A stretch of DNA of 64,000 nt, taken from assembly GCF_041886205.1 (NCBI RefSeq), contig NZ_CP169029.1; one strand, given 5' to 3'. This document shows positions 38,059-43,130 of the stretch, piece after piece (position 1 is the stretch's first letter; every line of letters starts with the position of its first letter). Below the pieces are notes generated by a model. The model was not told the DNA's origin. It searched no databases and saw nothing but the letters and a program-made list of their open reading frames with translations. Made by a program: the position numbers and the translations under genes. This DNA comes from Escherichia coli. GTDB lineage: Bacteria; Pseudomonadota; Gammaproteobacteria; Enterobacterales; Enterobacteriaceae.

Positions 38059-39087
38059 ATGACTGATAACAATCAAAATAGCCGCGAACAATTTTATCAG
38101 CACATTTCCGGGCAAAACCTGACCCCGCTGTGGGAGTCACTACACCATCTGGTGCCGAAAACGCCCAACGCTAACTGTGTGCCAGCGTACTGGAATTATC
38201 AGGAGATCCGCCCGCTGCTGCTGGAGAGCGGCAGCCTGATTGGCGCGAAAGAGGCGGTGCGCCGCGTGCTGGTGCTGGAAAACCCGGCGCTGCGCGGGCA
38301 GTCTTCCATCACCGCGACTTTATATGCCGGTTTGCAACTGATCATGCCGGGCGAAGTGGCACCGAGTCATCGCCATAACCAGTCGGCGCTGCGTTTTATT
38401 GTTGAAGGCAAAGGGGCATTTACCGCCGTTGACGGCGAACGCACGCCAATGAATGAGGGCGATTTTATCCTCACTCCGCAGTGGCGCTGGCACGATCACG
38501 GTAACCCTGGCGACGAACCAGTTATCTGGCTCGATGGGCTGGATCTGCCATTAGTGAATACTCTGGGCTGCGGTTTTGCCGAAGATTACCCGGAAGAGCA
38601 ACAACCGGTAACGCGTAAAGAGGGCGATTATCTGCCGCGTTACGCTGCCAATATGTTGCCGCTGCGCCATCAGACCGGGAACTCCTCACCCATCTTTAAC
38701 TACCGTTATGACCGCAGCCGCGAAGTGCTGCACGATTTAACCCGCCTGGGCGATGCCGATGAGTGGGATGGCTACAAAATGCGCTACGTCAACCCGGTCA
38801 CCGGTGGCTATCCGATGCCGTCGATGGGCGCTTTCCTGCAACTGCTGCCGAAAGGGTTCGCCTCCCGCGTGGCGCGTACCACTGACAGCACCATCTATCA
38901 CGTGGTGGAAGGCGGCGGGCAGGTCACCATCGGCAATGAAACCTTCAGCTTTAGTGCAAAAGATATCTTCGTGGTGCCGACCTGGCACGGCGTGTCGTTC
39001 CAGACCACGCAAGATACCGTGTTATTCAGTTTTTCGGACAGACCGGTACAAGAAGCCCTGGGACTGTTCCGCGAAGCGCGTTATTAA
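38059..39087 (+). CDS. Gentisate 1,2-dioxygenase (bicupin)
   Basis: 342-aa ORF with two cupin modules and His-rich metal site ([12 protein letters not shown]…WRWHDHGN). Confidence 0.85.
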
Positions 39088-39102
39088 TTTGGGAGAGAAA
39101 AA

Positions 39103-39804
39103 ATGACTCAATACGTATTCGAACCACAAGCGCCCGTTACCGTACCGGTTGTTGGCAGTGATGAACAATTCCCCGTGCGCCGCGTGTACTGCGTCGGACG
39201 TAACTATGCCGCCCACGCCCGCGAAATGGGCTTTGATCCGGATCGTGAACCGCCATTCTTCTTCTGCAAACCGGCGGATGCCGTTGTTCCGGTTGCCGCT
39301 GGCGAAACGCTGGCGCTGCCGTATCCGGCGCAGACCGATAACTACCATTACGAAATTGAACTGGTGGTGGCGATTGGTAAAAAGGGCAGTGATATCCCGC
39401 TGGAAAACGCCCATGAATATGTCTGGGGTTATGCCACGGGTCTTGATATGACTCGTCGTGACCGTCAAATGGAAATGCGCCAGATGGGCCGCCCGTGGGA
39501 AATCGGCAAAGCGTTTGATCTCTCGGCCCCCATCGCGCCGCTGCACAAAGCCAGCGAAACCGGCGGTATTGATAACGCGCCAATCTGGTTACAGGTTAAC
39601 GGCGAAGATCATCAGCGCAGCGATATTCGCCATCTCATCTGGTCAGTGAATGAAACCATCAGCTACCTGTCCGGCTTTTTTGAACTGCAACCGGGCGATC
39701 TGATCTTCACCGGTACGCCGGAAGGGGTTGGCCCGGTAGTGAAAGGTGATGTGATCACGGGCAACGTCGAGGGCTTAACGCCTATCGCGGTGAAAATTGT
39801 CTGA
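39103..39804 (+). CDS. Fumarylpyruvate hydrolase (FAH family)
   Basis: 233-aa ORF with fumarylacetoacetate-hydrolase fold motifs ([15 protein letters not shown]); sits between the dioxygenase and the isomerase. Confidence 0.8.
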
Positions 39805-39809
39805 GGTGC

Positions 39810-40457
39810 ATGATGAAGCTGTACAGTTTTTTTAATAGTTCAGCATCGTACCGGGTACGCATTGCGCTGGCGCTGAAAGGCATTGATTACCATACCGAAG
39901 GGGTGAATATCCGCATTGGTCAGCAAAATGAACTGGCCTACCGGCGGATGAATCCGGTCGGGCTGGTGCCGACGCTGCTGACTGACGAGGGCGAATCACT
40001 TGGACAATCGCTGGCGATTATTGACTGGCTGGATCGTCACTACCCCCAAGTTCCGCTGATGCCGCAGGAAGAGCCGGCCCGCAACAAGGTGCTGGAAATT
40101 GTCTATGCCATCGCCTGTGATATTCATCCACTGAATAACCTGCGCGTGCTGCGCTACCTGACCGAAGAGCTGAACGTCAGTGAAGAAGATAAAAAACGCT
40201 GGTATGCGCACTGGATCCAGCAAGGGTTAAGCGCGGTGGAACAGCTGTTGCGCCAGAGCCAGTCGGGGCAATTTTGCGTGGGCGAGACGCCGACGCTGGC
40301 AGATTGCTGCCTTGTCCCGCAGTGGGCGAACGCGCTACGCATGAACTGCGATCTGAGTGGGTATCCGCGCTGCAAAGCGGTGTACGACGCCTGCACGCAG
40401 CTGCCAGCGTTCATTGCCGCAGCGCCAGAAAATCAACAAGATAAAATTTCAGCCTGA
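39810..40457 (+). CDS. Maleylpyruvate isomerase (GST zeta-class / maleylacetoacetate isomerase-like)
   Basis: 215-aa ORF with GST N-terminal thioredoxin-like fold (MKLYSFFNSSASYRVRIALALKGIDY). Confidence 0.8.
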   Translation: MMKLYSFFNSSASYRVRIALALKGIDYHTEGVNIRIGQQNELAYRRMNPVGLVPTLLTDEGESLGQSLAIIDWLDRHYPQVPLMPQEEPARNKVLEIVYAIACDIHPLNNLRVLRYLTEELNVSEEDKKRWYAHWIQQGLSAVEQLLRQSQSGQFCVGETPTLADCCLVPQWANALRMNCDLSGYPRCKAVYDACTQLPAFIAAAPENQQDKISA

Positions 40458-40468
40458 CCAGGAGAACC

Positions 40469-41665
40469 ATGATGACTAAAGTGACACGCGCAGTAATTGT
40501 GGGAGGCGGGATCGGCGGTGCGGCAACTGCGCTGTCACTGGCCCGCCAGGGGATCAAAGTGGTGCTGCTGGAAAAGGCGCATGAGATTGGTGAGATTGGC
40601 GCGGGCATCCAGTTGGGGCCAAATGCGTTTTCGGCGTTGGATAGCCTCGGCGTCGGCGAAATCGCCCGCCAGCGCGCGGTATTCACCGATCACATCACCA
40701 TGATGGATGCGGTAAACGCCGAAGAAGTGGTGCGCATTGAAACCGGTCAGGCCTTTCGCGACCATTTCGGCGGCCCTTACGCGGTGATCCACCGGGTTGA
40801 TATTCACGCCTCGGTGTGGGAAGCGGTACTGACGCATCCGGACGTGGAATATCACACCTCCACCAACGTCGTGGATATTCGTGAGACGGAAGACGATGTC
40901 ACCGTGTTTGACGATCGCGGCAATAGCTGGAGCGGCGATATTCTGATTGGCTGTGATGGCGTGAAGTCAGTGGTGCGCCAGAGCTTATTAGGCGATGCGC
41001 CGCGCGTCACCGGACATGTGGTCTACCGCGCAGTTATCGATTGTGCGGATATGCCGGAAGATTTGCGCATTAACGCACCAGTACTGTGGGCGGGGCCGCA
41101 CTGTCACCTGGTGCATTACCCTTTGCGCGGCGGCAAGCAGTATAACCTGGTGGTGACATTCCACAGCCGCCAGCAGGAAGAGTGGGGCGTGAAGGATGGC
41201 AGTAAAGAGGAAGTGCTCTCTTACTTTGAAGGGATTCACCCCCGTCCTCGCCAGATGCTGGATAAACCGACCTCCTGGCGACGCTGGTCAACCGCCGACC
41301 GTGAACCGGTAGCGAAGTGGGGAACGAAGCGCATTACGCTGGTTGGCGATGCGGCCCATCCGGTGGCGCAGTATATGGCGCAGGGTGCCTGTATGGCGTT
41401 GGAAGACGCGGTAACGCTCGGCAAGGCGCTGGCGCAGTGTGAGGGGGATGCGGCGCAAGCCTTTGCACTGTATGAGTCGGTACGTATTCCGCGCACCGCG
41501 CGCATCGTCTGGTCGACCCGTGAAATGGGGCGGGTTTATCACGCCGCAGGAGTAGAGCGCCAGGTACGAAACCTGCTGTGGAAAGGTAAATCGCAGGCAG
41601 AGTTTTACCGCGGCATGGAGTGGCTGTACGGCTGGAAAGAAGATAACTGTCTGCAACCACGCTGA
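40469..41665 (+). CDS. FAD-dependent 3-hydroxybenzoate 6-hydroxylase (salicylate hydroxylase-like monooxygenase)
   Basis: 398-aa ORF with N-terminal GxGxxG motif ([14 protein letters not shown]) and C-terminal FAD-binding motif ([22 protein letters not shown]). Confidence 0.8.
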
Positions 41666-41726
41666 GTACTTTAATCCGCTGACCGGAGGCGCTAACATAG
41701 CGCCTCATTTTTTTGCGGGTGATGAT

Positions 41727-42674
41727 ATGCGTGTGTTACTGGCGCCGATGGAGGGTGTGCTTGACTCTCTGGTGCGTGAATTGCTGACCGAAGTTAACGA
41801 CTACGATCTGTGCATCACCGAGTTTGTCCGCGTGGTGGATCAACTGCTGCCGGTAAAAGTCTTTCATCGCATTTGCCCTGAGCTACAAAACGCCAGCCGG
41901 ACACCATCCGGTACGCGGGTGCGCGTTCAGTTGTTAGGTCAGTTCCCACAATGGCTGGCAGAGAACGCCGCCCGTGCGGTGGAATTAGGTTCCTGGGGCG
42001 TGGATCTCAATTGCGGCTGCCCGTCGAAAACGGTTAACGGCAGCGGCGGCGGGGCGACGTTACTCAAAGATCCTGAACTCATCTACCAGGGTGCAAAAGC
42101 GATGCGTGAAGCTGTACCGGCGCATTTGCCCGTCAGCGTGAAAGTGCGTCTGGGCTGGGACAGCGGTGAGAAGAAATTTGAAATCGCCGATGCGGTTCAA
42201 CAGGCTGGTGCTACGGAGCTGGTGGTGCATGGACGGACAAAAGAGCAGGGTTACCGCGCGGAGCATATTGACTGGCAGGCGATTGGCGAGATTCGCCAGC
42301 GGCTGAATATTCCGGTGATTGCCAACGGTGAAATCTGGGACTGGCAGAGTGCGCAACAATGCATGGCGATCAGCGGCTGCGACGCAGTGATGATTGGTCG
42401 CGGGGCGCTCAATATTCCCAACCTGAGCCGGGTGGTAAAATATAACGAACCGCGAATGCCGTGGCCGGAGGTGGTTGCTTTGCTGCAAAAATATACCCGT
42501 CTGGAAAAGCAGGGCGATACCGGGTTATATCACGTAGCGCGGATTAAACAGTGGTTGAGTTATTTGCGTAAAGAATACGATGAAGCAACAGAATTATTTC
42601 AGCATGTTCGGGTGTTGAATAATCCCCCTGATATTGCAAGGGCTATTCAGGCAATTGATATCGAGAAACTCTAA
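41727..42674 (+). CDS. dusC: tRNA-dihydrouridine(16) synthase
   Basis: 315-aa ORF starting [23 protein letters not shown] with a Dus TIM-barrel and catalytic Cys region (DLNCGCP). Confidence 0.9.
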
Positions 42675-42715: not shown

Positions 42716-42960
42716 TCAATAGGCCGCACGGTTGTTTGGTGGCGTCAAAATTGCCGAGGCGTTCCCTGAAGGCCGGGGCAGCCCACATGGATGTGGGCTG
42801 AGGGCGCGTTTTACAGGGATGTTACCTCGCGCCCGACCCGGTAGCCGTAAGGGATAAGCCGAGGGCACCGCGCAGCGGCGATTTTGTTCGCCAGAGCCCG
42901 GGGGTGCAGGGGGCGGCGGCGATTGGCCGCCCCCTGCGCGCTCCTTGCGCCAGTGATTAT
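42716..42960. repeat. GC-rich intergenic block with several perfect stem-loops; unclassified structured element
   Basis: Hairpins gcagggggcggc-ggcgattg-gccgccccctgc (42906-42936), gcccacat-gg-atgtgggc, and gggcgcg…cgcgccc; it lacks the ccggat / atccgg REP core. Confidence 0.3.
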
Positions 42961-43045
42961 ATGAAGCAATGCACATGACAGGAGCGCAACAGGATGAGAG
43001 ACTGAAATATTCTCGTTATTTTCGGACCTGATGACATTAATTAAT

Positions 43046-43130
43046 TTTAAAATATCATCTTAAATACGCCAGTCACCACCAGTAGCCCAATCAGGAAAAT
43101 AATCAATACAGCCCAGAGTATAATTTTCAT
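43046..43130 (-). CDS. yohP: Small membrane protein YohP (27 aa)
   Basis: Hand translation gives MKIILWAVLIIFLIGLLVVTGVFKMIF with an AAGGAA Shine-Dalgarno 5 nt upstream; it is below the ORF-track size cutoff. Confidence 0.65.

Follow-up and report, generated by a model that had tools for sequence, protein, structure and literature searches.

A hairpin cluster between dusC and yohP of Escherichia coli is the known RRS-dusC/TRIP1c repeat and may be related to the TwoAYGGAY motif

What kind of element fills the spacer between dusC (41727-42674, + strand) and the convergent small membrane protein gene yohP (43047-43130, - strand) in the 64,000-nucleotide stretch of Escherichia coli DNA analysed here (the window)? 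An earlier note, made from the letters of the sequence, had described positions 42716-42960 of this spacer as unclassified, and suggested either a structured noncoding RNA or a less common interspersed repeat. The hairpin cluster is in fact already known, as RRS-dusC or TRIP1c, and is not new: the window copy is identical to the dusC-yohP spacer of K-12 MG1655 (100% identity over 311 bp, in NC_000913.3 and in another MG1655 record), where a DNA-level function has experimental support. It looked unannotated because the GenBank/RefSeq records bear no feature there, neither the PGAP record nor NC_000913.3 annotating the spacer. Both flanking genes were assigned from their open reading frames and from the annotation of the identical K-12 DNA; dusC, the upstream flank, lies on the same strand as the structured strand of the element.

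TRIP1c was first catalogued by Rudd (1999) and re-surveyed by Li (2024; PMC10888264), who describes it as 273 bp long, situated 43-44 bp past the yohI/dusC stop, and 94% identical to TRIP1a. As RRS-dusC, a "replication risk sequence" of 222 bp, it was characterized by Pham (2023, PMC10287960; 2024, PMC10592627), and it is the subject of a single-molecule preprint (Kusi-Appauh 2026, 10.64898/2026.06.16.732529). PMC10592627 reports both the G-quadruplex (G4) motif of RRS, GGGGGTGCAGGGGGCGGCGG, and its effect on polymerases: in vitro, Pol I, II, and IV are blocked by the G-rich strand, and in an M13 assay in vivo, synthesis by Pol III falls about 2-fold (Pham et al.). By ssGap-seq, RecA and SSB pile up on a lagging-strand stretch of ~2 kb beside each RRS copy; these peaks are gone after deletion, arise at ectopic copies, and are abolished by inversion in K-12 constructs, which also alters supercoiling. 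The two K-12 copies lie ~650 kb either side of dif. Their double deletion was possible only with a compensating 200-kb amplification or substitute copies, and when both are deleted or inverted, negative supercoiling expands across the 1.3-Mb terminus region (Psora-seq). Purified replisomes leave a gap at nearly every passage when the G-rich strand is on the lagging template, and in about two-thirds of passages with the complementary strand (Kusi-Appauh 2026). The published work thus already establishes RRS as a site of programmed replication gaps that shapes chromosome topology, with a conditional requirement for at least one copy; none of this is a result of the present study.

We consider it very probable that the window element works by this published gap mechanism, and that a multi-hairpin fold of its + strand is under selection. 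As the fork unwinds the region, the G-rich + strand, as lagging-strand template, would briefly be single-stranded and would fold into a very stable structure that blocks the lagging-strand polymerase, leaving behind it a post-replication gap, up to ~2 kb long, onto which SSB and RecA are loaded; at least one RRS copy would be needed unless the genome compensates. The putative selected fold would consist of a long closing stem round two hairpins with A-N-GGA-Y loops, followed by a long perfect hairpin and then by a 3' hairpin. The window has the G4 motif as an exact match at 42900-42919 on the + strand, the single occurrence of GGGGGTGCAGGGGGCGGCGG in the 64 kb, with a chance expectation of 0. 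Of 16 4-kb bins, 12 show positive GC skew on the window + strand (cumulative +0.61), which makes this G-rich strand the template for the lagging strand, just as RRS is oriented natively in K-12.

Directly upstream of dusC, at 38500-41726, the window carries a gentisate-pathway cluster (e.g., the ORF at 40469-41665, + strand), with genes for a 3-hydroxybenzoate 6-monooxygenase and a fumarylacetoacetate hydrolase family protein together with maiA and gtdA. K-12 holds yohJ/yohK in its place, and the stretch is matched over at least 80% in only 611 of 5426 E. coli genomes.

Fold and covariation of the + strand

The whole repeat unit, TRIP1c, measures ~275 bp and occupies 42718-42992 on the + strand, as judged from the similarity limits in 5, 9, and 73 aligned copies; the sequence shared among them runs from about 42718-42730 to about 42992. 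The extent first assigned, 42716-42960, holds the element but stops slightly short of its end. Within the unit, a near-identical core at 42736-42955 (+ strand, limits approximate) is common with the lysO-aqpZ copy and corresponds roughly to the published 222-bp RRS; the window copy and the K-12 lysO-aqpZ copy align near-perfectly from TTGGTGGCG to CCAGTG and are divergent beyond.

All of the structural features lie on the + strand. The closing stem, P1, pairs CAAAATTGCCG (42746-42756) with CGGCGATTTTG (42876-42886), these being helices 1-2 in RNAalifold. It encloses hairpin 1 (42779-42800, arms CAGCCCACAT/ATGTGGGCTG, found by inverted-repeat search), with the near-invariant loop ATGGAT at 42787-42792, and hairpin 2 (42802-42834), whose arms GGGCGCG/CGCGCCC at 42802-42808 and 42828-42834 surround the loop AGGGAT at 42815-42820. 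A perfect 12-bp GC hairpin at 42906-42937 overlaps the G4 motif, and is followed by a 3' hairpin at 42938-42987, whose arms GCGCTCCT/AGGAGCGC (42938-42945 and 42980-42987) flank a variable loop of ~34 nt. The 3' arm of this last hairpin falls outside the published 222-bp RRS. The three hairpins that had been picked out by eye all lie where they had been placed, the inverted-repeat search setting the arms of the 12-bp stem precisely at 42906-42917 and 42926-42937, with an 8-nt loop.

The earlier impression of a highly structured GC-rich stretch holds for both strands, which fold far better than dinucleotide shuffles. As DNA, the + strand folds at -71.9 kcal/mol (z = -5.2) and the - strand at -70.7 kcal/mol (z = -6.1), and as RNA the + strand reaches -143.8 kcal/mol (z = -4.6); in each of these three folds, none of 200 shuffles was as stable as the real element.

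At the 3' end of the element (42981-43005), AGGAG is followed 8 nt on by an ATG that opens a frame of three codons in the window; the corresponding frames are longer in the K-12 lysO copy and in strain 8178. The AGGAGCGCAAC portion of this sequence is conserved in the family as a stem arm, so this resemblance to a ribosome-binding site may be incidental.

The covariation check that the earlier note had called for was made on an alignment (A3) of the window copy and 72 representatives, each at most 94% identical to any chosen before it. RNAalifold found 54 pairs in ten helices, with compensatory double changes in 38. Paired cells make up 96.9% of A3; column shuffles give 82.1%, none of the 500 being as high as the real alignment, and sliding the partners gives 39-43%. 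Double-change cells number 562 versus 150 in shuffles, and the covariation score is 0.419 versus 0.148. Wobble cells of the G-T kind (49) exceed those of the A-C kind (14), which identifies the + strand as the folded strand.

The signal extends over every module of the fold. Helices 1-3 of P1, comprising CAAAATTGCCG/CGGCGATTTTG and further pairs, covary; 97.0-97.9% of cells are paired in helices 1-2, and helix 2 is compensatory in five of five pairs. Helix 5, the stem of hairpin 1, is compensatory in six of eight pairs, its arms occurring as CCCAC/GTGGG, CCCGC/GCGGG, GCGC/GCGC, CCAGC/GCTGG, and AGGCG/CGCC, while helices 6-7, in hairpin 2, also covary round a loop that is A-N-GGA-Y across the family. 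Helix 9, the 12-bp GC hairpin, is compensatory in eight of ten pairs and keeps at least nine of the ten in 71 of 73 members; its arm appears as TGCAGGGGGCGGC, TGTAAAGGGCGT, TGCCAGGGCGGC, or TGTTAAGGGTGC, each with its complement, as in the natural Citrobacter arm pair TGTAAAGGGCGT/ACGCCCTTTACA. In helix 10, the 3' hairpin, GCGCTCC/GGAGCGC switches to CGTTCAC/GTGAACG, and 99% of cells are paired.

The G4 motif is the 5' arm of the perfect GC hairpin. A canonical G4 pattern (four runs of at least three G) occurs in 1 of 73 members, not from E. coli, and a G4Hunter-type score was used instead; it is 2.0 or more in only 24 of 73 members, mostly of the Escherichia/Klebsiella type, and below 1.5 in 32 of 73. 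In the portion of Weinberg's supplement consulted, the middle hairpin of the Psychromonas repeat filed under the motif TwoAYGGAY (see below) is a 14-bp AT-rich stem without G-runs. From a hairpin kept in 71 of 73 members, a G4 propensity found in 24 of 73, and this AT-rich stem, we infer that the hairpin is the ancestral, selected feature and the G4 a lineage-specific one. The whole + strand multi-hairpin fold thus appears, from its pattern of variation, to be kept by selection, and the G4 as such does not. On the covariation evidence, the structure that matters would be the hairpins with the two conserved loops and not the G4. Family members differ in their stems but hardly at all in the two loops (ATGGAT and A-N-GGA-Y), a near-invariance that a purely thermodynamic roadblock does not explain.

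Copies, alleles, and distribution

The search of E. coli genomes that the earlier note had proposed found the element to be multi-copy, a result that the note had listed among those that would refute its proposal: megablast with a 301-bp stretch placed it in 5425 of 5426 complete genomes, with a median of three copies per genome and a range of 1 to 8. The suggestion of a less common interspersed repeat family was therefore apt, the family being the TRIP1/RRS repeat.

This distribution also bears on readings of the locus as a retron msr/msd, as a gene for an 86-aa minus-strand small protein, or as a REP/BIME element, to which we give a practically negligible probability. In their favor are only the hairpin-rich look of the stretch and a mechanical ORF listing; against them, this sequence recurs, in several copies, in K-12 and throughout E. 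coli (5425 of 5426 genomes). The earlier note had considered a retron and seen no reverse transcriptase nearby; it was right to set the idea aside, the flanks being dusC and yohP only, the element multi-copy, and no retron family matching in Rfam. It had also distrusted the 86-aa frame (42716-42976), which lies wholly inside the repeat; copies differ by frame-breaking 1-nt indels and by compensatory substitutions in stems, so this ORF is not a gene. Its exclusion of REP/BIME elements stands as well: the sequence has no REP resemblance, and the only REP-type Rfam matches (naRNA4, sub-threshold) lie elsewhere in the putP-efeU loci.

Besides the dusC copy, E. coli genomes carry copies at lysO-aqpZ (94.1% identical in K-12 to the window copy over 272 bp), at putP-efeU (full length in strain EC0585, internally deleted in K-12), and at alx-sstT (present in strain E7, with a different repeat there in K-12), which sit exactly as described for TRIP1a, 1b, and 1d. 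The K-12 alx-sstT spacer (L008, 4600-4720) holds unrelated repeat-like sequence rich in GAGGG/CCCTC, the whole spacer differing from that of E7. Internal deletions arose at two loci, lysO-aqpZ of strain KE41 (L133, 598-734) and putP-efeU of K-12 (L009, 4853-5004); in both, the central part is gone, and with it hairpin 2 and some or all of the GC hairpin. In strain LHM10-1 (H141), otherwise the best match to the window, an IS1A is inserted in the dusC-yohP stretch; the window is without this insertion.

The window-type dusC allele is present in 3316 of 5426 complete E. coli genomes (61%), the other ~39% having the flanks without it. In both non-window-type strains examined, 8178 (L006) and O157:H7 (L135, 411-690), the dusC copy is inverted. 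The lysO-aqpZ copy is also inverted in O157:H7 (L132, 598-871; L134, 1495-1768), so both RRS loci there are opposite to K-12 relative to the flanking genes. Many natural lineages, O157:H7 among them, carry the orientation that abolishes gap peaks in K-12 constructs. At two of four E. coli loci examined, alx-sstT and putP-efeU (full-length copy), the K-12 map implies that the G-rich strand lies on the leading-strand template. Among 39 solo copies, orientation relative to replication was 18 versus 21, a count that shows no bias but comes from a noisy and uninformative GC-skew proxy, one that fails even on the known K-12 lysO copy. The 61% share of the window-type allele, the inverted dusC and lysO copies in nature, the leading-strand placement at two loci, and, with that reservation, the lack of GC-skew bias speak against a purely orientation-dependent DNA role, and any model in which orientation is essential must account for natural inverted copies.

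Such variability would also be expected of a selfish or decaying miniature mobile element (MITE-like or IS200/IS605-like) with no host function, for which the replication gap would be a side effect. An E. coli genome holds 1 to 8 copies, four or five fixed spacers are occupied in some genomes and not in others, a given spacer can hold the element in either orientation with differing flanking sequence, internally deleted copies exist (K-12 putP-efeU, KE41), one Klebsiella genome has the element in 13 places, and copies avoid divergent promoter spacers, as other intergenic repeats do. We nevertheless regard a mobile origin of this kind as improbable. The element has no terminal inverted repeats, its ends, GC(A/T)C..GTTGGTGG and GGAGCGCAAC, not being inverted repeats of each other, and at alx-sstT, dusC-yohP, and lysO-aqpZ there is no target-site duplication or clean empty site; in the alternative alleles the whole spacer is replaced or the element is inverted, and an insertion junction can therefore not be seen. 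A partner transposase was not identified either, nor did the element match anything in the phage collection. Moreover, the covariation of its structure across genera indicates long-term selection on the fold, and at least one copy is conditionally essential according to published work, both of which favor the conserved replication-gap element over a selfish one.

Outside E. coli, a pattern scan of one genome per species gave 117 stretches, made up of family members and chance hits. The members come from Escherichia, Citrobacter, Enterobacter, Klebsiella (with the 13 places in one genome noted above), Raoultella, Kluyvera, Silvania, Pseudocitrobacter, Atlantibacter, and Leclercia. The plasmid collection likewise yielded copies from Klebsiella and Citrobacter, mostly on mislabelled chromosomes. 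Near-identical enterobacterial copies in metagenome-assembled genomes labelled Sporobacter, Desulfacinum, and "Proteobacteria" (L052, L020, L035) suggest that those bins contain contaminating Enterobacteriaceae contigs. Two Silvania genomes have RRS copies within a few kb of a SECIS element and a tRNA-Sec gene (L047, 10736-10794; L058, 3759-3849), a closeness that is probably coincidental.

Many of the copies outside E. coli form adjacent pairs (at L012 1645-2247, and at L029, L030, L028, L018, L096, L097, L087, L079, L082, L066, L123, L124, L067, L042, L080, and L093). Of these, 25 pairs are inverted, every one with the 5' ends facing each other (head-to-head) and never tail-to-tail, and five are in tandem. 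In close Citrobacter, Kluyvera, and Atlantibacter pairs the spacer is ~40-125 bp long and mostly AT-rich, and the Citrobacter pairs combine copies of two diverged subtypes. Promoter prediction in two of the head-to-head spacers gave nothing sigma-70-like.

Likeness to TwoAYGGAY and to CsrA sites

The Rfam scan proposed in the earlier note did return a family, RF01731 (TwoAYGGAY), at 42732-42883 on the + strand, although at 30.9 bits (E = 0.021 in 1.7 kb), short of the 43-bit gathering threshold. Scores are 29.9-30.6 bits for other E. coli copies and 32-38 bits for diverged head-to-head partner copies, while a Kluyvera homolog from the same alignment family matches the full model at 54.2 bits, above the threshold of 43 (E = 4.5e-8). 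The Kluyvera match was obtained in "evalue" mode; "gathering" mode on ten homologous loci gave no TwoAYGGAY, presumably as a result of speed filters. A match to AgvB on the minus strand (42964-43024; 22.9 versus 56 bits) and matches to several eukaryotic miRNA and snoRNA families are at chance level.

Hairpins 1 and 2 align to loops 1 and 2 of RF01731, respectively, and the window copy has the long P1 stem of that motif. Loop 1, ATGGAT, fits the TwoAYGGAY rule; loop 2, AGGGAT, has G for the expected Y, and many family members have ATGGAT in both loops. The CsrA SELEX consensus is RUACARGGAUGU. In hairpin 2, TTACAGGGATGT resembles this consensus, and UUACAGGGAUGU fits 11 of its 12 positions; on sequence grounds, the two A-N-GGA-Y loops resemble CsrA binding sites. 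The TwoAYGGAY motif was described by Weinberg et al. (2010), and the RMfam paper, which reports strong CsrA-motif matches in it, proposed CsrA binding.

The element might therefore act, instead or also, as a + strand RNA that would present two high-affinity CsrA-type sites (A-N-GGA in hairpin loops) ~26 nt apart and bind or titrate CsrA. Several observations are in keeping with such an RNA: the 5' domain matches RF01731, with the Kluyvera homolog above the gathering score; the loops are near-invariant and the stems covary; the wobble bias favors the + strand; and TwoAYGGAY carries the reported CsrA-motif matches. The 44 bp between dusC and the element downstream of it, both on the same strand, contain no intrinsic terminator, so that read-through would yield element RNA. 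Neither a sigma-70-like promoter upstream of the element nor a terminator was predicted when the structured strand was scanned in the window, in two Citrobacter pairs, and in the K-12 lysO copy. In spacers whose two genes run in one direction, the element has the sense orientation 10 times and the antisense orientation 12 times, so its role is not that of a dedicated 3'UTR element. The supplement of the CsrA CLIP-seq study (Potts 2017) marks dusC and ybjE "No" in all evidence columns, as we presume the columns are to be read, with intergenic peaks perhaps unlisted. The window copy itself falls below the Rfam threshold and has AGGGAU, not AYGGAY, in loop 2, and purified replisomes reproduce the gap on DNA. 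On balance we find an RNA role of this sort rather unlikely, and retain the DNA-level gap mechanism as the principal explanation.

More broadly, RRS/TRIP1 and TwoAYGGAY may be one family, in which a three-module fold with two invariant loops, and not a G4, is what has been preserved, the G4 being a lineage-specific reinforcement of an ancestral hairpin roadblock; we put this forward tentatively, as plausible but short of probable. As far as the searched literature shows, the link is new, because, among 7 of the 12 papers that contain the term TwoAYGGAY, none deals with RRS or TRIP1, and the RRS paper does not mention CsrA or hairpins. Likewise, the portion of the Weinberg 2010 alignment consulted includes Psychromonas sequences and none of the five E. 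coli/Klebsiella accessions looked for. The invariant loops suggest a sequence-specific partner, which, if the family is one, could be CsrA on an RNA copy or a protein that reads single-stranded DNA hairpins.

Comparison with known systems

The window copy agrees with the K-12 RRS in locus, sequence, G4 motif, and orientation relative to dusC and to GC skew: the sequences are identical, GGGGGTGCAGGGGGCGGCGG is present, and the G-rich strand is the lagging-strand template. The two differ in that the K-12 locus is without the gentisate-pathway island that the window strain has upstream of dusC, and the family-conserved unit of ~275 bp exceeds the published 222 bp by the 3' arm of the covarying terminal hairpin. 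In the terms of Rudd and Li, the window copy is TRIP1c, the dusC stop ending at 42674 and the element starting at ~42718, and loci and copy counts agree with Li 2024; the TRIP1 family here reaches beyond E. coli and is accompanied by covariation statistics.

According to the RRS authors, the only other programmed gap-triggering DNA structure is the pilE G4 of Neisseria gonorrhoeae. Its sequence is unrelated and it depends on a canonical G4, whereas the RRS family keeps the hairpin and not the G-runs. The CsrB/CsrC sRNAs, like the RRS element, present GGA motifs in hairpin loops, but they have 13-22 binding motifs (cited figure) where the RRS 5' domain has two loop sites and a few unpaired GGA elsewhere, and no promoter, terminator, or CLIP evidence of the CsrB/CsrC type was found at the window element.

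TwoAYGGAY and the RRS family share two adjacent hairpins, loops of the form A-Y/N-GGA-Y, and a long P1 enclosing both. In the part of the published material consulted, TwoAYGGAY is multi-copy in the gamma-proteobacterium Psychromonas, as the RRS family is in its own hosts, and when folded, the Psychromonas repeat and the window element are predicted to have the same three-module architecture. Studies of RRS have dealt with DNA only, whereas TwoAYGGAY is classed as an RNA. If they are one family, RRS-like elements would occur outside the enterobacteria, in Psychromonas, Clostridia, and gut metagenomes, and a 15-year-old orphan motif would gain a candidate function.
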